From NCBI GenBank assembly GCA_009885205.1, contig VFLE01000046.1:1-39670 (forward strand): DNA of 39,670 nucleotides. Direction: 5' to 3'. The notes below the pieces were generated by a model. That model had not been told where the DNA came from and did no database searches. It saw nothing but the letters and a program-made list of their open reading frames with translations. Position numbers and translations under genes: made by a program. Of this stretch, positions 1,914 to 7,186 are shown piece by piece (positions within the stretch are counted from its first letter, which is position 1; every line of letters starts with the position of its first letter). The DNA comes from Candidatus Shapirobacteria bacterium (GTDB taxonomy: Bacteria > Patescibacteriota > Microgenomatia > UBA12405).

Positions 1914-2645
1914 ATGAAGAAAGAATTAATATTAGAAAGACTTAAAAATGATGAAGACTATTATGGTCTTTTTGGTCAACAGTACCTTAGCAATTCAAAT
2001 GTTGGTACATTATTAACAAATCCATTAGCATTAAGAGATACTCAACAGTCGAATATAAACTTCTTGATTGGTGGTTATTTTCATACGGCTATATTAGAAC
2101 CAGATAAACTTAAAAAGTATCGAATAGTTGAAGCATCGACTAGAAATACAAACATATATAAGGAAATGTCTGGTGGAGAAATGTGTCTGTTAAAACACGA
2201 AGTAGATCAGTTAGAGTTAATGATAGACAAAGTACTATCTAATGAAGTATGTAAAGGTTTAATCAGAGCAGATAACAATGACTATGAGGTTCCTGGTATT
2301 GCAGAAATTGCAGGTTTAATGTGGAAAGGTAAAGCAGATATACTTAATCATTCTGAAAAATTAATTGTAGATTTAAAAACTACATCTAATCTAGCAGACT
2401 TTAGATATTCTGCTAAAAAATATAATTACGATAGTCAAGCATATATATATAAGCAATTATTTGGCTACGATATGGTTTTTATGGCCATAGACAAAATAAC
2501 AAATCAAATAGGTATATATGACTGTTCTGATAAATTCTTAGAAACAGGCAAAGAAAAAGTTGAGAAAGCTGTTGAAGCATATAACTTGTTTTACAACAAT
2601 CCAGACTTTATTCCTGAAAATTATTTTATTAACTTAACTTTATAA
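1914..2645 (+). CDS. PD-(D/E)XK exonuclease (RecE / exodeoxyribonuclease VIII-like), recombination partner of Erf
   Basis: GKADILN...LIVDLKTTS gives the D...D-x-K motif, followed by YDSQAYIYKQ, as in the PDDEXK exonuclease VIII-like family. Synteny with erf supports the call. Confidence 0.65.
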   Translation: MKKELILERLKNDEDYYGLFGQQYLSNSNVGTLLTNPLALRDTQQSNINFLIGGYFHTAILEPDKLKKYRIVEASTRNTNIYKEMSGGEMCLLKHEVDQLELMIDKVLSNEVCKGLIRADNNDYEVPGIAEIAGLMWKGKADILNHSEKLIVDLKTTSNLADFRYSAKKYNYDSQAYIYKQLFGYDMVFMAIDKITNQIGIYDCSDKFLETGKEKVEKAVEAYNLFYNNPDFIPENYFINLTL

Positions 2646-2647
2646 TT

Positions 2648-3001
2648 ATGAACAATGAACAATTTGAAGTTACACTTCCGCATGAAGGTAACAATGAACA
2701 ACTTAAAGTTACACTTCCCTATGAAGGTAACAATGAACAATTCGAAGTTATACTTCCGTATGAAGGTAACATAGATGATGCTATTAAATCAGCAGAAGAA
2801 TATTCTCTTAAACTAAAAAACATAAAAAGAGACGGTATTGATGTAGATAATATTGATATAATTACTGGAATAACAGTTGCTACATTTGTTGGTTCAAAAA
2901 ATAAAATACTAGAATTATTAGAAGAATTTGGTGGAGAACAAAATGCATTAGATACAATGGATGAACCTTATGGTAGAATAAGTAAATTAGTAATCAATTA
3001 A
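2648..3001 (+). CDS. acidic repeat protein (117 aa), function unknown
   Basis: ORF track. The N-terminus is three 13-aa repeats NNEQ[FL][EK]V[TI]LP[HY]EG. My count is about 23 D/E against about 10 K/R. Confidence 0.6.
   Translation: MNNEQFEVTLPHEGNNEQLKVTLPYEGNNEQFEVILPYEGNIDDAIKSAEEYSLKLKNIKRDGIDVDNIDIITGITVATFVGSKNKILELLEEFGGEQNALDTMDEPYGRISKLVIN
2651..2767 (+). repeat. three tandem 39-bp in-frame repeats
   Basis: The units are 2651-2689, 2690-2728 and 2729-2767 (aacaatgaacaaNtNNaagttaNacttccNNatgaaggt), with a few substitutions each. Confidence 0.9.
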
Positions 3002-3019: not shown

Positions 3020-3340
3020 ATGGCTTCAATTATCAATGCAAGTATCAACTTAAATGAAATTCCAAAAGACAAGATTATCAGTGGTGCTAAAGGTAAATAT
3101 CTACCTATTACAATAGTACTTAACGATGACTTTGATAAATTTGGAAACCAAGGTCCTATTACTGTTGGACAAAGTAAAGAAGAACGAGAGTCTAAAGCTC
3201 CTAAGGTTTATCTAGGTAATGTTAAAGTACTTTGGACTAATGGAGAAAATGTAAATGTAGCTCCTAAAGACGGTCAACAACAAAGCGCAGCACCTAAAAA
3301 GGCAACACCTAAAGAAGTGTTTGACGATTTACCGTTTTAA
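3020..3340 (+). CDS. small single-stranded DNA-binding protein (SSB-like, 106 aa)
   Basis: The C-terminal acidic tail ...EVFDDLPF resembles the canonical SSB tail (E. coli DDDIPF), preceded by a Q/P/A/K-rich linker. The position in the Erf/exonuclease module fits. Confidence 0.55.
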   Translation: MASIINASINLNEIPKDKIISGAKGKYLPITIVLNDDFDKFGNQGPITVGQSKEERESKAPKVYLGNVKVLWTNGENVNVAPKDGQQQSAAPKKATPKEVFDDLPF

Positions 3341-3342
3341 TA

Positions 3343-3534
3343 TATACCAATGCTCGCTGTTAGGCTCGACATATTTTAAAAAGGGTTTATATTAAGGTCG
3401 GCAAACCAGAAACCCTGCTCTTGTAAAAGCTCCGTAACTGATAACTCGGTAAGCTACAAGAAAGACCAAGGTTGGTATAATGTACCTATAGCGCTTCCCG
3501 TAAGATCAGCCTTTAGGTCTTTTGTTAGTTAGTT
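3343..3534 (+). ncRNA. candidate structured RNA (class unassigned) in a GC-rich non-coding island
   Basis: No ORF longer than 10 codons and visibly higher GC than the flanks. A closing helix pairs tataccaa 3343-3350 with ttggtata 3472-3479. Nested helices pair gggttt 3383-3388 with aaaccc 3410-3415, and tcttgta 3419-3425 with tacaaga 3455-3461. An intrinsic terminator follows. Confidence 0.35.
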
Positions 3535-3557
3535 AAACCCCATTTATTGGGGTTTTT
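3535..3557 (+). terminator. rho-independent terminator
   Basis: An 8-bp stem aaacccca / tggggttt (3535-3542 with 3548-3555) has a 5-nt loop tttat and runs into a T tract (ggggtttttc). Confidence 0.75.
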
Positions 3558-3590
3558 CTATCTATAATTAGTAACAATTAAATTTAATAG

Positions 3591-5306
3591 ATGCAAGTAA
3601 ATAACACGGAGATTAATGGTTTCTTAATCGATACTTTTAATCAATATGGTCTTGAAGAAGGAAAATCGCAGGGTATATGCCCGTTGTGTTCTTCTGATAG
3701 AAAACCTAAGAATGAGAAAGCTAAGTGCTCTTCTTATGATTGGCAAAAAGGATTAGGTACTTGTCATAACTGTAATAAGTCGTTTCAACTACATACTTAT
3801 CAGCGCAAAGGCGCATCTGAAAAGATATATGTTAGACCAGAAGTTAGTGCTATACACACTAACAGTTCTAAGGTTGTTGAATGGTTTAAAGGTAGAGGTA
3901 TTTCTGAACAAACGCTTACTGAATTAAGAATAAGCGAAGGTCCAGAATTTATGCCTCAGACAGGAAAAACTGAGAATGTAATAAAGTTTAATTACTTTAT
4001 GGGTGATCAATTAATTAATATAAAATACCGTGATGGCAGAAAGAATTTTAAACTATTTAAAGGTGCCGAAAAAGTTTTTTATAATATTAATAGTATTGTG
4101 GGTTTCGAGTATTGTGTTATCGTTGAGGGAGAAATGGATGTGCTCGCGTTGCACGAAGCTGGTATTACTAATGTTGTATCAGTTCCAAATGGCGCAACAT
4201 TAAACAGTAATAATCTAGACTATTTAGATAGTTGTATTGATTACTTTGAAGACAAAGAAAAGATTATATTAGCAGTTGATTCTGATGCTGCTGGACAAGC
4301 ATTACAGTCTGAACTTATACGTAGATTGGGTTCTGAAGTATGTTATCTAGCATCGTTTGAAGATTGTAAAGACGCAAATGAATATTTATTAAAATATGGA
4401 AAAGAAGCACTATCAAAAAGAATATCAAAAGCTAAACCTGTTCCGCTGGAAAATGTTAAAACTTTTAGAGACATCGAAGATGATGTTACAGATTTTGTGC
4501 GAAACGGTTTCAAACCAGGTTTTCAGATTGGTTTGGATAATTTTGATAGTATTTTCTCTACTTATACGGGTCAGTTTATTACTGTTACTGGTATTCCTAG
4601 TAGTGGTAAGTCTGATTTCGTTGATCAAATGGTTGTAGGTTATAATGGTAACTATGGTTGGAAAACAGCATTTGCTTCGCCAGAGAATCAACCTACATAT
4701 TTACATGCTCATAAATTAATGCGTAAAACTTGGGGCGATATGCCATCAGCAGAAGATATACACGGAGAAAAGTGGAATCAAATAGCAACGCATGTTAATA
4801 GTAGTTATTTCTTTATAGATATGGAACGTTATACGTTAGAATCTGTTCTTAGAAAAGGTGCTGAACTAGTTAAACGTAAAGGTATTAAATGCCTTGTTAT
4901 AGATCCATTTAATAAGGTTAGAGCAACAGATGCTTCTGGAGATGTTAATGTATATACATTGGAATATCTACAACAGATAGAAGTCTTTGCTAAAAAGTAT
5001 GATGTATTAGTTATTGTAGTTGCTCATCCAACTAAAATGTATAAAGACAGAGATGGTAAAATAGAAGAACCAACTATGTATAATATAAAAGGTGGTGGTG
5101 AATGGTACGATGCTTCTTATCACGGATTACTTGTACATAGAAACTACGAGGAAAAAACAGTTAAAGTAAAGGTATTAAAAGTTAAGTTTCAAAACCTCGG
5201 TGAGAACGGAGCAGAAAGTCATTTCAAATGGGAACCTAAATCTGGTTGTTTTATACCTCATGAACCAGTCGATGCTAGTGGAGATAAATTACCATGGGAA
5301 AGTTAA
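3591..5306 (+). CDS. bifunctional DNA primase-helicase (T7 gp4-like)
   Basis: Zinc ribbon CPLCSS...CHNCNKSF. TOPRIM motifs VIVEGEMDVLAL and AVDSDAAGQ. Helicase Walker A VTGIPSSGKSDF, Walker B CLVIDPF and VVAHPTK. Confidence 0.9.
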   Translation: MQVNNTEINGFLIDTFNQYGLEEGKSQGICPLCSSDRKPKNEKAKCSSYDWQKGLGTCHNCNKSFQLHTYQRKGASEKIYVRPEVSAIHTNSSKVVEWFKGRGISEQTLTELRISEGPEFMPQTGKTENVIKFNYFMGDQLINIKYRDGRKNFKLFKGAEKVFYNINSIVGFEYCVIVEGEMDVLALHEAGITNVVSVPNGATLNSNNLDYLDSCIDYFEDKEKIILAVDSDAAGQALQSELIRRLGSEVCYLASFEDCKDANEYLLKYGKEALSKRISKAKPVPLENVKTFRDIEDDVTDFVRNGFKPGFQIGLDNFDSIFSTYTGQFITVTGIPSSGKSDFVDQMVVGYNGNYGWKTAFASPENQPTYLHAHKLMRKTWGDMPSAEDIHGEKWNQIATHVNSSYFFIDMERYTLESVLRKGAELVKRKGIKCLVIDPFNKVRATDASGDVNVYTLEYLQQIEVFAKKYDVLVIVVAHPTKMYKDRDGKIEEPTMYNIKGGGEWYDASYHGLLVHRNYEEKTVKVKVLKVKFQNLGENGAESHFKWEPKSGCFIPHEPVDASGDKLPWES

Positions 5307-5552
5307 ATGGCAATTAAGAAAGGTATTGACATGGGAGATTATCTTCCATCTAATAAAGAAAGAAAAGCTTATATATGGTGTATTAATAATGGTATTTATA
5401 TATCACCACAAGCTAAATCTTTAATAGAATGGTTTATATGTATTGAGATGAATAATAAGATTAATACAAGTCCAGACGCATACAAGAAAGTAGAAATATG
5501 GAAACAAATATTCAAATATTATACATACTATTATGAAAAATATAAAAAGTAG
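5307..5552 (+). CDS. hypothetical protein (81 aa)
   Basis: ORF track. It starts one nt after the primase-helicase stop and overlaps the next gene by 20 nt. Confidence 0.5.
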   Translation: MAIKKGIDMGDYLPSNKERKAYIWCINNGIYISPQAKSLIEWFICIEMNNKINTSPDAYKKVEIWKQIFKYYTYYYEKYKK

Positions 5553-6171
5553 TTTCGAAACTGCAGATGAAGCTTATTCTTATTTATTAGATAAAATAAT
5601 ATTAGAAGGAGTAGAATTTGATAATACAAAAGCTTTATTCAATGTAGGTTTTTATATAGAAAATCCAACAGATAATTATATAAAAGATGTTAATAGAAAA
5701 TGGAATCCAACATACGCAATGAGAGAATGGTTATGGTATCTATCTGGTGATCCTAGTGCTTTAGAAATATCTAGATATGCTCCAATATGGAAAAATATGA
5801 TGGATGAGAATGGCAATGTTAGATCTAACTACGGTTGGCAATGGAAACGTAACGATCAAATAGGTAAAGTGATTAAAATGTTACAAGATAATCCTAATAC
5901 TAGAAAAGCAACAATATCTATATATGATGGAAAAGAAATAGGTGCGTATTCTAAGGATACTCCGTGTACTTATGCTATACAGTTTACAATATTAGACAAT
6001 AAACTGAATATGGCTGTTTTAATGCGTTCTAATGACTTATGGTACGGTTTTTGTAATGATCAATTTTGTTTTTCAAACTTACAAATAGATATTGCTAAAA
6101 TTTTAGGTATTGAAATTGGTACTTATTATCATTTTGCTCATAATTTACATTTATACAACGATAAATTATGA
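5533..6171 (+). CDS. thymidylate-synthase-superfamily enzyme, dCMP hydroxymethylase/methylase-like (212 aa)
   Basis: Family motifs MREWLWYLSGD, SNYGWQW, NPNTRKATISIYD, catalytic Cys in TPCTYAIQF, MRSNDLWYGFCND and HNLHLYN. Counting from the Cys gives R+20, D+23, G+27 and Asp at +31, where ThyA has Asn177. Confidence 0.75.
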   Translation: MKNIKSSFETADEAYSYLLDKIILEGVEFDNTKALFNVGFYIENPTDNYIKDVNRKWNPTYAMREWLWYLSGDPSALEISRYAPIWKNMMDENGNVRSNYGWQWKRNDQIGKVIKMLQDNPNTRKATISIYDGKEIGAYSKDTPCTYAIQFTILDNKLNMAVLMRSNDLWYGFCNDQFCFSNLQIDIAKILGIEIGTYYHFAHNLHLYNDKL

Positions 6172-6353
6172 TACCAAAAGAAAAAGCAATAGAATTAGTA
6201 GAAAAATATTTTTATTTATTTTCAGTAGAATTAGAAAACACAATTGCTGATTACGAAGCTAAAGAATGTGCATTAATAGTAGTTGATGTATTAACTAAAG
6301 AAACAGGAGCTAAGTATTGGTATGACGTTAAAAAAGAATTAGAAAATTTATGA
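6168..6353 (+). CDS. hypothetical protein (61 aa)
   Basis: ORF track, with ATGA overlaps at both ends. Confidence 0.5.
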   Translation: MIPKEKAIELVEKYFYLFSVELENTIADYEAKECALIVVDVLTKETGAKYWYDVKKELENL

Positions 6354-7186
6354 AATATTATCTATACCATATATATGGTAAAAAAATAGGAGTCACGTGT
6401 GATATTAAAGATAGGTTAACTAGACAACAAGGTTATGGTTATAAAGAATATGAAGTATTAGATTCTAGTGATGATATAGATTATATATCAAATAAAGAAA
6501 TAGAACTTCAAAAAATACATGGATACAGAGTTGATAGGCAATCTTACAAAGAATTAGTAACTAAATATAAATTAAATAAAATGGTATTAAACGTAACAGA
6601 ACAAACAACTACATTTCCTTTTCCTTTGAACAAGTTAAAAGGTAACTTGATGGACACTTTAGGTGTTAAAATGGATAATTCTTTTGGCAAATATGTTTTA
6701 ACTGCAGATCTATGCAACTGGATAGTTAAAAATGCTAAAACATCTATGTATAACCCAGCGCGTTCATTTATCTACAATAAAGCAATGGATGAGTATTGTA
6801 AGTCATTAGGTAAAAAGTCTATGGCAATGGAACATAAGAATCAACCTGAAGAAGTTGAAGTTGAAGTTCCTAATGTATATGACTTGATTAGAAAATGGGC
6901 TGATGATCGTGGTATCTATAGAAATGGTGATACTAAAACTCAGTTTGTAAAACTAATGGAAGAAGCTGGTGAATTAAGTAGATCTATTCTTAAAAACGAT
7001 AGAGATGAATTCATCGATGCAATTGGCGATATGATGGTTGTATTAACCAATTTAGCTGCGTTAGAGGGATTAAAAGTTGAAGACTGTGTTGTATCAGCTT
7101 ACGATGTAATTAAATCAAGACAAGGCAAAATGGTAAATAACACTTTTGTAAAAGAAAATAATAACGAAATAATAGCAACATTATAG
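6350..7186 (+). CDS. fusion protein: degenerate GIY-YIG-like N-terminus plus C-terminal MazG-like NTP pyrophosphohydrolase
   Basis: The C-terminus LMEEAGELSRSILKNDRDEFIDAIGDMMVVL carries the E-x2-E ... E-x2-D metal-binding pattern of all-alpha MazG-type NTP-PPases. The N-terminus YYLYHIYGKKIGVTCDIKDRL resembles a GIY-(x)-YIG motif. Confidence 0.6.
   Translation: MKYYLYHIYGKKIGVTCDIKDRLTRQQGYGYKEYEVLDSSDDIDYISNKEIELQKIHGYRVDRQSYKELVTKYKLNKMVLNVTEQTTTFPFPLNKLKGNLMDTLGVKMDNSFGKYVLTADLCNWIVKNAKTSMYNPARSFIYNKAMDEYCKSLGKKSMAMEHKNQPEEVEVEVPNVYDLIRKWADDRGIYRNGDTKTQFVKLMEEAGELSRSILKNDRDEFIDAIGDMMVVLTNLAALEGLKVEDCVVSAYDVIKSRQGKMVNNTFVKENNNEIIATL

Follow-up and report, generated by a model that had tools for sequence, protein, structure and literature searches.

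The window analysed here is the whole of a 39,670-nt stretch of DNA (contig VFLE01000046.1, assembly GCA_009885205.1, Candidatus Shapirobacteria bacterium), read on the forward strand. A 250-nt intergenic gap at positions 3341-3590 separates a 106-aa ORF (3020-3340) from a 571-aa primase-helicase with Toprim and DnaB_C domains (3591-5306). The original prediction took the upstream ORF for an SSB. This assignment could not be confirmed; the ORF has no Pfam match, and its sole PHROG match is of unknown function. The gap had also been described as a GC-rich island free of ORFs longer than about 10 codons. It is indeed richer in GC than its surroundings (0.39 at 3341-3560 and, within the core at 3345-3479, 0.41; the window as a whole has 0.307), and the core ranks in the top 3% of the 135-nt windows of the stretch. 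The lack of ORFs holds in substance but not in its exact limit: two TTG-start ORFs of 24-25 aa lie in the gap, which has no other mechanical ORFs of 20 aa or more. The element described below runs in the same direction as every flanking ORF of the window. No tRNA or tmRNA gene was found in the window by ARAGORN, and no sigma-70-like promoter for an independent gene was found there with a tool that omits Bacteroidota-type promoters.

Predicted fold of the core element

The core element, at 3343-3479 of the plus strand, is predicted to form an H-type pseudoknot that is closed by a stem (P1) and carries a variable inserted hairpin. In P1, UAUACCAAU (3343-3351) pairs with GUUGGUAUA (3471-3479). 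The following linker J1 (GCUCG, 3352-3356) reads AGUGAAG in other subtypes and is conserved within subtypes. The short helix P2 consists of CUG (3357-3359), part of a GCUGU that is invariant in the family defined below, and CAG (3407-3409), which is invariant save for GAG in the Klebsiella jumbo phage RaK2; the CUC/GAG pair of this phage is the single compensatory event in P2. Next comes a junction (3360-3363) that is UUAG in 82 of the 122 family members and UA in 29 of them. The 5′ strand of helix A (3364-3370) is made up of G, a bulged C at 3365 and UCGAC, of which 3364 and 3366-3370 pair with GUCGGC at 3397-3402. The loop of helix A in the window is GAAAAA-GGGUUU-AUAUUA. Its AAAAA run, which is found in 110/122 members, and the pseudoknot strand GGGUUU (B5′, 3383-3388) together span 3378-3388, and the conserved loop AUAUUAAG spans 3389-3396. 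The family consensus of the latter is RUAGUA, with GUAGUA or AUAGUA in 88/122 members and AUAUUA in 8/122. An AAAC junction (present in 72/122 members) and the CAG of P2 occupy 3403-3409, and AAACCC (B3′, 3410-3415), directly 3′ of the CAG, pairs with GGGUUU to form helix B. The variable hairpin (3418-3461; stem 3419-3425 with 3455-3461, inner CCGUAACUGAUAACUCGG) and the linker J2, GAAAGACCAAG (3460-3470; family consensus GAAAGACCCGAA), a near-invariant block across subtypes, lead back to P1.

The original prediction had proposed the GGGUUU/AAACCC pairing as a simple hairpin. The pairing stands; since helix A and the CUG/CAG helix (3357-3359 with 3407-3409), both overlooked, are present, it makes up a pseudoknot instead. 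The other helices that had been named are likewise present, namely P1, the stem of the variable hairpin, a downstream hairpin at 3484-3488/3514-3518, and a terminator stem. Compensatory changes in relatives support all named helices except the terminator stem, which recurs in relatives with small differences in the loop. The folding energy (MFE -52.9 kcal/mol, z = -1.22) is no better than chance. Thus, the evidence for the element is comparative and not thermodynamic.

Covariation and membership in a phage RNA family

The conserved blocks of the window element are shared by phage immuto and about 120 further non-redundant members. They make up an RNA family that was defined in the present analysis and has 122 non-redundant members and no Rfam accession. 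The consensus order is GCUGU(U)AG, helix A, GAAAAA-GGGUUN-RUAGUA, helix A′, (AAAC)CAG-NAACCC, YG, and GAAAGACC, and all these blocks are present in the window at 3356-3467. A covariance model (R1) built without window-type sequences matched the window at 3357-3417 with 49.7 bits (E = 1.5e-11), and this is its sole match in the window. One strict sequence pattern by itself matches more than 118 viral contigs, and the family extends to hundreds of phage genomes that are unrelated to each other. A pattern scan of genome contigs gave mostly chance matches, about 9 of 79 being confirmed by the covariance model.

All three major helices vary in a concerted manner. P1 occurs as 40 distinct stems in the family, with a score of 22.0 for cognate strands versus 9.2 for non-cognate strands, and in alignment A4 both sides were changed in 5/7 pairs. 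For helix A, 93 distinct sequences with all four types of Watson-Crick pair were found (GGUACG/CGUACC in phage immuto), and the scores of cognate and non-cognate strands were 16.3 and 4.5. Helix B was assessed in 59 members gathered with anchors outside helix B. Ten variants of B3′ were found; the exact complement lies upstream in 51/59 members and the other 8 use G.U pairing, while a non-cognate complement was present in 7/531 comparisons. In alignment A4 as a whole, 89.5% of the paired cells were filled by pairs versus 80.1% in shuffles, and the covariation score was 0.297 versus 0.141; none of 500 shuffles scored as high, and slid registers were all lower. The covariation among homologous regions by which the fold was to be checked was thus found in P1, helix A, and the pseudoknot. 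These comparisons show that 3343-3479 (+) belongs to a large phage-borne family of pseudoknotted RNAs, whose fold with P1, helix A, and the helix B pseudoknot is established by covariation.

The family members, which are about 75-135 nt in length and share about 35 highly conserved core nucleotides, occur as three natural circular permutations that are opened at three different peripheral sites. The variable hairpin shows compensatory changes in loci L044 and L064, is missing from the minimal members L122 and L082, gives way to different hairpins in immuto, L107, and L292, and is found detached from the element in L292. In L008, a skipping-rope RNA is at the variable site. The variable site is permissive and tolerates other RNA modules.

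The original prediction did not assign the region to any known RNA family, and Rfam 15 agrees. A cmscan search at gathering scores, with the whole window and 27 loci covering all permutations, placed nothing on the element, and neither did the E-value mode for the gap (E <= 10) and for 13 kb of other subtypes (E <= 1). A GcvB match of 18.9 bits, with a threshold of 42 bits, was taken as chance. The family is unannotated and absent from Rfam 15. Searches of the literature, both for the concept and for sequence strings, turned up no account of the motif. A 2023 catalogue (PMC10690425) that lists 10,006 candidate structured RNAs from viruses may include it.

Genomic context of the element and its family

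The gap was compared with those of 74 close relatives in which both flanking genes, the primase-helicase and the upstream ORF, are the same. The gap ranges from 9 to 740 nt in length among them, and the element is present in 2/74. A terminator scan identified the intrinsic terminator of the upstream operon at 3535-3560 (+), with an 8-bp stem and a 5-nt loop (3535-3555) followed by a T-run. The same terminator was found in 22/75 loci (the 74 relatives and the window), of which 19 lack the element. The original prediction had regarded it as the element's own; as it is found in relatives without the element, 3535-3555 belongs to the conserved backbone. The AT-rich spacer (..CUAUCUAUAAUUAGUAACAAUUAAAU..) at 3561-3590 (+), just 5′ of the primase-helicase start, has a GC content of 0.13 and looks like a promoter-like part of the same backbone. 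It is conserved in relatives both with and without the cassette.

The hairpin mentioned above, hereafter hairpin 2, lies with a U-run at 3482-3523 (+), where 3484-3491 pairs with 3511-3518 (inner GCU/AGC, loop UCCCGUAAGAUC). Compensatory changes were found as ACCUA/UAGGU in the window, ACCAG/CUGGU in L044, and ACUUA/UAAGU in L096, and a run of 6-8 U follows in all three loci. Hairpin 2 is also found in L278, L280, L281, and L289, which lack the element. It is a separate module and probably serves as the first terminator. The gap 5′ of the primase-helicase is a hotspot for inserted cassettes in the relatives. One such insert, in L291, has a candidate ORF that resembles a GIY-YIG endonuclease as judged by eye.

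Because the element is found in only 2/74 relatives and the terminator is kept without it, the element is a sporadic cassette, and the comparison supports neither a switch for the adjacent gene nor a conserved origin. Its location is probably the upstream operon's 3′ UTR. In this phage group, the gap 5′ of the primase-helicase is a site where small RNA modules are shuffled.

In the family as a whole, a same-strand tRNA lies within 2 kb of 68/122 members, and 41/122 directly abut one, while an opposite-strand tRNA was found once. Members may precede or follow the tRNAs or lie at a distance from them. In PM2, a T4-like phage, the element heads the tRNA cluster, after trna.2, and GOLLD (L060) and ROOL (L005) share tRNA arrays with family members. 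About 43% of the members are in tight intercistronic gaps, about 9 nt after a stop codon and about 17 nt before a start codon, and many tight same-strand gaps have the downstream ribosome-binding site directly 3′ of the element. The neighbours of stand-alone members are genes of RNR, ThyX, deoxyribosyltransferase, helicase, nuclease, and polymerase. Unannotated members were found in cultured phages of Klebsiella, Pectobacterium, Erwinia, Rhizobium, Vibrio, Bacillus, and Flavobacterium. Cultured phage-host pairs exist for Flavobacterium phage immuto, Klebsiella RaK2/K64-1, Pectobacterium PM2, Vibrio Va1, and Bacillus Eldridge. Annotation pipelines overlook the element or place spurious small ORFs on it, as in phage immuto.

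The order of fold, terminator(s), and gene in the window had suggested a riboswitch or attenuator, in which an aptamer and the downstream terminators would control read-through into the primase-helicase gene and, more generally, into genes of nucleotide metabolism. The highly conserved pseudoknotted core, of a kind often seen in aptamers, and the stand-alone members beside RNR, ThyX, deoxyribosyltransferase, helicase, and polymerase genes are consistent with this reading. However, 72/74 close relatives have the same primase-helicase gene and lack the element, the terminator exists independently of it, and the fold and the terminator stems showed no alternative pairing with each other. Nor does the family have a coupled expression platform, since a terminator was found within 110 nt downstream of 8/121 members and, in the upstream control, for 9/121. 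A consistent position in the 5′ UTR of a coherent gene set is lacking, over half of the members being located in tRNA arrays instead, and no riboswitch family of Rfam matches. A role of the element as a regulator of the adjacent primase-helicase gene is therefore not supported by the comparison, and the riboswitch reading is very unlikely.

A transcription-activated origin had been suggested as well. The location in a replication module, adjoining the primase-helicase, and the insertion hotspot with its GIY-YIG-like candidate would suit a feature that acts at the DNA level, either a replication origin or a target of recombination or homing. Against this, nearly all close relatives lack the element, and the typical features of origins, iterons and AT-rich unwinding repeats, were not found in it. 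The covariation preserves RNA pairing including the pseudoknot, and the helices tolerate G.U (41 cases) and not A.C (9 cases). Since this asymmetry is accompanied by the strict co-orientation with tRNAs (68:1), the element appears to be a strand-specific RNA on the transcribed strand rather than a DNA structure, and I regard a DNA-level role as extremely improbable.

Presence in RNA libraries and possible roles

The element is present in RNA libraries. In at least 7 freshwater metatranscriptome runs, contigs cover 3345-3477, some extending to 3523, with word depths up to about 2,600; these Logan contigs are directionless and may contain DNA. The drop in coverage at the edges of the motif is mainly due to conservation among different phages. 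In one RNA contig, which is a minimal window-type variant, an Illumina adapter is fused exactly at CU|GUUAGG. This single observation may point to a defined site within the element at which the RNA is cleaved or processed. Other RNA contigs from several metatranscriptomes span CU|GUUAGG.

Of the roles that had been considered, that of a 3′ UTR-derived or independent phage sRNA fits best with the location between the operon's stop codon and its conserved terminator on the strand predicted to be transcribed. The metatranscriptome contigs and the strong covariation in the family lend further support. The original prediction thus survives as far as its sRNA reading is concerned, and its riboswitch/attenuator and origin readings do not. 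I consider it about an even chance that the element is a stable accessory RNA in the 3′ tail of the upstream operon that acts through its fold on a conserved partner in trans. The cassette would have been inserted between the stop codon of an early recombination/replication operon and the terminator of that operon, and so would be transcribed as the operon's 3′ tail. Transcription would terminate near 3523, at hairpin 2 with its U-run, or else near 3560, at the backbone terminator. In the fold, helix A is enclosed by P1 and the CUG/CAG helix, and its loop pairs with AAACCC; this compactness may allow the RNA to persist as a discrete stable molecule. The near-invariant core (GCUGUUAG, GAAAAA, RUAGUA, AAAC, and GAAAGACC) may then act on a conserved partner encoded elsewhere. 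A function based on the fold is favoured by the three circular permutations with their different peripheral openings and by the other modules accepted at the variable site. I infer that the partner is most likely part of the machinery of tRNAs, translation, or RNA processing, because most members are in tRNA arrays. The tight intercistronic placement of about 43% of the members would fit a cis-acting processing or stabilising element equally well as a trans-acting RNA.

Natural circular permutation is typical of small self-cleaving ribozymes. The three permutations, together with a pseudoknot core of such conservation, therefore call to mind an RNA-processing element, either a small ribozyme of a new type that cleaves itself or a dedicated host RNase signal, that would cut polycistronic transcripts at a fixed site in tRNA arrays and replication operons, possibly at CU|GUUAGG, and leave structured, protected ends. 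The members that abut a same-strand tRNA, those in tight gaps with a ribosome-binding site directly after them, and the adapter at the G of GUUAGG would suit this reading. The HDV-like 'theta' ribozymes, described in PMC10879173 as adjoining phage tRNAs, are a precedent for small ribozymes in this position. On the other hand, the adapter junction was seen once, and RNA contigs run across the putative site, so that cleavage, if any, is incomplete. The site is within the CUG/CAG helix, and RaK2 has a different base at its +1 position. Terminators follow the window-type members, which is atypical for self-cleavers according to Weinberg et al. 2017 (PMC5737381), and the known ribozyme models of Rfam have no match. 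Such a processing element is rather unlikely. A phage-borne new class of small catalytic RNA is unlikely, too; this could be a self-cleaving ribozyme that punctuates tRNA arrays and replication operons by cutting near the invariant GCU|GUUAG or, with a lower likelihood, an ultra-minimal RNase-P-like core with tRNA precursors as its substrates. If the catalytic reading is true, the three permutations and about 35 near-invariant nucleotides would define the catalytic fold.

The known ribozymes resemble the element in part. Hammerhead, twister, twister-sister, pistol, hatchet, hairpin, and HDV-like ribozymes gave no Rfam 15 match in the three permutations. Twister and hammerhead ribozymes are also natural circular permutations of one fold and are frequent in phage-like DNA, but their core sequences and junction architecture are unrelated to those of the element. 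The hairpin ribozyme, suggested by strings like ACCAGAGAAAC and UAUAUUAC, was ruled out because the strand connectivity differs. Like the present element, theta ribozymes are small pseudoknotted RNAs abutting phage tRNA genes, whereas the present family has members on either side of tRNAs or far away. The order of the crossing strands and the extra hairpin of the element recall the nested double pseudoknot of HDV-like ribozymes. However, 8 nt between the corresponding strands are too few for P3/L3, and an HDV-like fold was ruled out because P3/L3 is absent; the curated HDV-like families are ruled out by the lack of a match to any Rfam model.

RNase P is another RNA linked to tRNA genes. Its core (P1-P2-P4) has the same strand order of a closing P1, an outer helix, and a pseudoknot helix, which is a resemblance only. 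RNase P RNA has GGAAAG before P4 and ACAGAA after P2, and the element has an A-rich joiner and an ACCAGA-type joiner before the pseudoknot helix. In contrast, the CR-I/CR-V consensus is unmatched (by eye, the CR-V pattern ACNNRANNNNGNNUA misfits ACCAGAAACCCUGAA), and the element has no specificity domain, P15, or L15. The smallest known RNase P RNAs exceed 140 nt, while the element is about 90 nt, and the window phage has no tRNA genes. As no Rfam model of any kind matches the element, the curated RNase P families are ruled out. tRNA and tmRNA models likewise have no Rfam match on the element.

Phage T4 encodes two small stable RNAs of unknown function, species 1 (rnaC) and species 2 (rnaD), within its tRNA cluster, a setting comparable to that of the element in PM2. 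The covariance model found no match in the T4 tRNA region, and the conserved blocks of the present family are missing from rnaC and rnaD. GOLLD, ROOL, skipping-rope, and drum are orphan structured RNAs of phages and prophages that often lie beside tRNAs (Weinberg et al. 2017, PMC5737381). The present family shares with them the co-oriented phage tRNA neighbourhoods and an elaborate conserved structure, and a skipping-rope RNA is nested within the member L008. It does not match them in sequence or structure, and GOLLD and ROOL are about 400-800 nt in length, compared with about 75-135 nt here. The H-type pseudoknot core, the three circular permutations, and the occurrence between replication genes also distinguish the present element.

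Orphan phage RNAs, GOLLD, ROOL, and skipping-rope among them, pose some of the clearest open questions of bacterial RNA biology, and the present family adds a small, tractable class to them. Since members are found in cultured phages of at least 7 host genera, they can be tested genetically and biochemically. If the RNA is catalytic or has an anti-defence role, it would bear on the processing of phage tRNA arrays or on the protection of translation.

A pseudoknotted RNA fold in unrelated phages

The gap between an ORF of 106 aa (3020-3340) and an ORF of 571 aa (3591-5306), which encodes a Toprim + DnaB_C primase-helicase, is 250 nt in length. The primase-helicase is 44% identical to its counterpart in Cellulophaga phage phi10:1. 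The upstream ORF had been named SSB; since it has no Pfam match and the only PHROG found is of unknown function, this name is unverified. It was also predicted that the gap is a GC-rich island lacking ORFs longer than about 10 codons. The GC content of 3345-3479 is indeed 0.41 versus 0.307 for the whole window (top 3% of 135-nt windows), and only two small ORFs overlap the gap, although these TTG-start ORFs reach 24-25 aa. The minimum-free-energy fold of the gap recovers the predicted P1 helix and hairpins, and its stability is not greater than that of shuffled sequences (z = -1.22). Rfam and ARAGORN scans gave no match in the gap.

In a sensitive BLAST search against GenBank phages, the gap was matched over only 75 nt (3345-3420, 83%) by an intergenic stretch of immuto, a 160-kb Flavobacterium myovirus otherwise unrelated to the window phage. 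The immuto copy heads a tRNA cluster, beneath a spurious 34-aa ORF, and when it is aligned with the window, four conserved blocks alternate with variable segments that are complementary to one another. Pattern scans revealed that the element is abundant in IMG/VR; one strict pattern found more than 118 contigs among the matches listed. BLAST with other subtypes located it, unannotated every time, in the cultured Klebsiella jumbo phages RaK2 and K64-1, T4-like Pectobacterium PM2 (between trna.2 and the first tRNA), Erwinia Hena1, Rhizobium RHEph12, Vibrio Va1, and Bacillus Eldridge and Kirov. Of 79 pattern matches in a bacterial genome collection, only about 9 were upheld by a covariance model, most of these on short MAG contigs; in essence, this is a viral family.

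In the strand order of the window, the family fold comprises the P1 5′ strand, J1, CUG, UUAG, the helix A 5′ strand, a linker, GAAAAA-GGGUUN-RUAGUA, the helix A 3′ strand, AAAC, CAG, NAACCC, YG, an optional hairpin, GAAAGACC(C)GAA, and the P1 3′ strand. An H-type pseudoknot results from the pairing of GGGUUN with NAACCC across helix A. In the window, P1 is 3343-3351 with 3471-3479, the CUG/CAG helix 3357-3359 with 3407-3409, helix A 3364 and 3366-3370 with 3397-3402, and helix B 3383-3388 with 3410-3415, while an inserted hairpin occupies 3418-3461. The family occurs in three circular permutations. In type 2, the form of the window, P1 closes the fold; in type 1, both ends lie within the helix-A loop and a short hairpin or AUUAAGAUCG takes the place of P1; in the third, at locus L250, the variable-hairpin site holds the closing stem.

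Does sequence variation follow this pairing? Among 59 non-redundant members gathered by anchors excluding helix B, ten variants of the helix B 3′ strand were found; in 51 members a strand exactly complementary to the member's variant is present upstream, and G.U pairing accounts for the other 8, whereas complements of other variants appeared in only 7 of 531 comparisons. Helix A occurs in 93 distinct versions, in which positions 2-6 use all four Watson-Crick pair types, and cognate strands score 16.3 against 4.5 for non-cognate ones, only 0.28% of non-cognate combinations attaining the cognate median. The 40 distinct P1 stems score 22.0 against 9.2. CUG/CAG does not vary except in the RaK2 group, where one compensatory event has made it CUC/GAG. 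When G.U and A.C were allowed equally, the helices contained 41 G.U and 9 A.C. For a formal covariation count, 16 members of subtype 2b were aligned by MAFFT with window-type sequences excluded. Paired cells amounted to 89.5% versus 80.1% in shuffles, 13 pairs were altered on both sides, and the covariation score was 0.297 versus 0.141, a value reached by none of 500 shuffles; every slid register scored lower. The covariance model from this alignment has the element as its sole match in the window (49.7 bits, E = 1.5e-11). These results show that the element is a conserved, pseudoknotted, strand-specific RNA fold, tolerant of permutation and insertions, in unrelated phages.

The gap in close relatives

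IMG/VR contains 473 relatives of the primase-helicase, among which 74 loci (79-88% identity, with an upstream ORF ending in the same ..DDLPF* motif) were taken as close relatives. Their gaps range from 9 to 740 nt (median 115). With the window included, 29 of 75 gaps are empty, 24 hold a small Zn-ribbon-like ORF (CxxC...CDICPxC motif), and 22 have a terminator and AT-rich spacer as at 3535-3590. The element is present in only two of the 74, L282 (the L010 contig) and L292. This gap is a hotspot for insertions. Four relatives have hairpin 2 (3482-3523) but lack the element. Because the element is rare, and hairpin 2 and the inserted hairpin are found detached, both element and hairpin 2 are optional cassettes in the upstream operon's 3′ UTR, lying after the stop codon and before the backbone terminator. 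This arrangement fits one of the original proposals, a 3′UTR-derived or independent phage sRNA. The terminator itself (3535-3555) was recovered by a terminator scan; it occurs in relatives and belongs to the backbone rather than to the element. With an optional 3′-UTR cassette, the riboswitch/attenuator and replication-origin readings lose their main support, the element being absent from nearly all relatives with the same gene. Terminators are not a family feature either (8 of 121 members downstream versus 9 of 121 upstream). A riboswitch and a DNA-level feature are both very unlikely.

Further modules were observed at this locus. Hairpin 2, GUACCUAUAG-CGCUUCCCGUAAGAUCAGC-CUUUAGGUC plus a U-run, is seen in the window, L044, L096, L278, L280, L281, L289, and L292, with and without the pseudoknot element; its stem varies in a compensatory manner and its 12-nt loop is conserved. 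It is an independent conserved module, terminator-like in appearance, with a sequence-specific loop. The inserted hairpin of the window (inner CCGUAACUGAUAACUCGG) stands free in L292, about 150 nt downstream of the L292 element, which holds another insert. Apparently, small RNA modules are both shuffled and nested at this locus. A further module, about 110 nt long (GUGGCGUUAGGCGACACCAC...AAGAAUCGCC...), recurs in the gap of L010/L282, L274, L289, and L298; distant segments of it are complementary (GGCGA/UCGCC), and it may be another structured RNA. The Zn-ribbon-like ORF is found in L285, L286, L326, L331, L337, and about 20 other relatives, and the L291 gap has an ORF resembling, by eye only, a GIY-YIG endonuclease. 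The AT-rich spacer 3561-3590 (UCUAUCUAUAAUUAGUAACAAUUAAAU), from the terminator to the primase-helicase start, is kept among relatives and may be a phage-specific promoter.

Genomic context, transcripts, and possible roles

A same-strand tRNA directly adjoins the element (within 40 nt) in 41 of the 122 non-redundant members surveyed and lies within 2 kb in 68; a single member has an opposite-strand tRNA at that distance, and 53, the window among them, have none. The tRNA arrays with the element also contain GOLLD, ROOL, and permuted tmRNA. In the viral contig L011, a permuted two-piece tmRNA gene (2229-2654, minus strand) lies directly downstream of a type-1 member. Directly 3′ of window-type elements in immuto (L001 3131-3216), L027, L034, and L107 is an 86-nt tRNA-like sequence with normal acceptor and T arms and an odd anticodon region; it is a tRNA-Cys in GenBank, yet it goes uncalled by ARAGORN. 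Members standing alone occupy narrow same-strand gaps, about 9 nt past a stop and about 17 nt ahead of a start, among replication and nucleotide-metabolism genes: RNR, element, then ThyX, deoxyribosyltransferase, or helicase; DnaB, element, helicase; element, PD-(D/E)XK nuclease; element, RNR; or DNA polymerase A, element. The window genes around the element form a recombination/replication/nucleotide module resembling these flanks: in order, a sigma-factor-like protein (380-1156), an Erf-like annealing protein (1346-1912), a PD-(D/E)XK (DUF3799) nuclease (1914-2645), thymidylate synthase (5533-6171), and a MazG-like pyrophosphohydrolase (6350-7186).

The closest known systems are GOLLD, ROOL, skipping-rope, and drum, orphan phage or prophage RNAs near tRNAs (PMC5737381), and the theta ribozymes, which adjoin phage tRNAs (PMC10879173); the element has no match to any of these. 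No Rfam 15 model matches it in any of its three natural permutations, and text and sequence-string searches of a collection of papers found no description, although it may be among the unnamed candidates of PMC10690425. It is an orphan structured phage RNA, absent from Rfam 15.

Freshwater metatranscriptome contigs, which derive from many related phages, are directionless and possibly include DNA, span exactly 3345-3477, some reaching 3523, with word depth up to about 2,600; their sharp coverage edges mostly reflect the limits of between-phage conservation. In a contig of run X25 (aligned at window 3378 / L027 1652), an Illumina adapter is fused to GUUAGGCUGAUGAC (GUUAGG...) of a minimal window-type variant. 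This implies a population of fragments that start after the U and at the second G in the invariant GCUGU, and suggests a defined RNA 5′ end there. The main rival, a processing element or a new self-cleaving ribozyme, draws on this single end, the circular permutations, and the intercistronic placement, but other RNA contigs run across the GCU/GU site and there is no ribozyme match at all; I consider it rather unlikely, and a new catalytic RNA class quite unlikely. The best explanation, to which I give about an even chance, is that the RNA would be released as a stable folded molecule whose invariant core acts on a partner encoded elsewhere. Since the element resides in tRNA arrays, the partner would probably be a component of the tRNA, translation, or RNA-processing machinery. 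In L008, a skipping-rope RNA (RF02924, 51 bits; 3112-3203, minus strand) is nested at the variable-hairpin site of a type-1 member, which physically links two orphan RNA classes.
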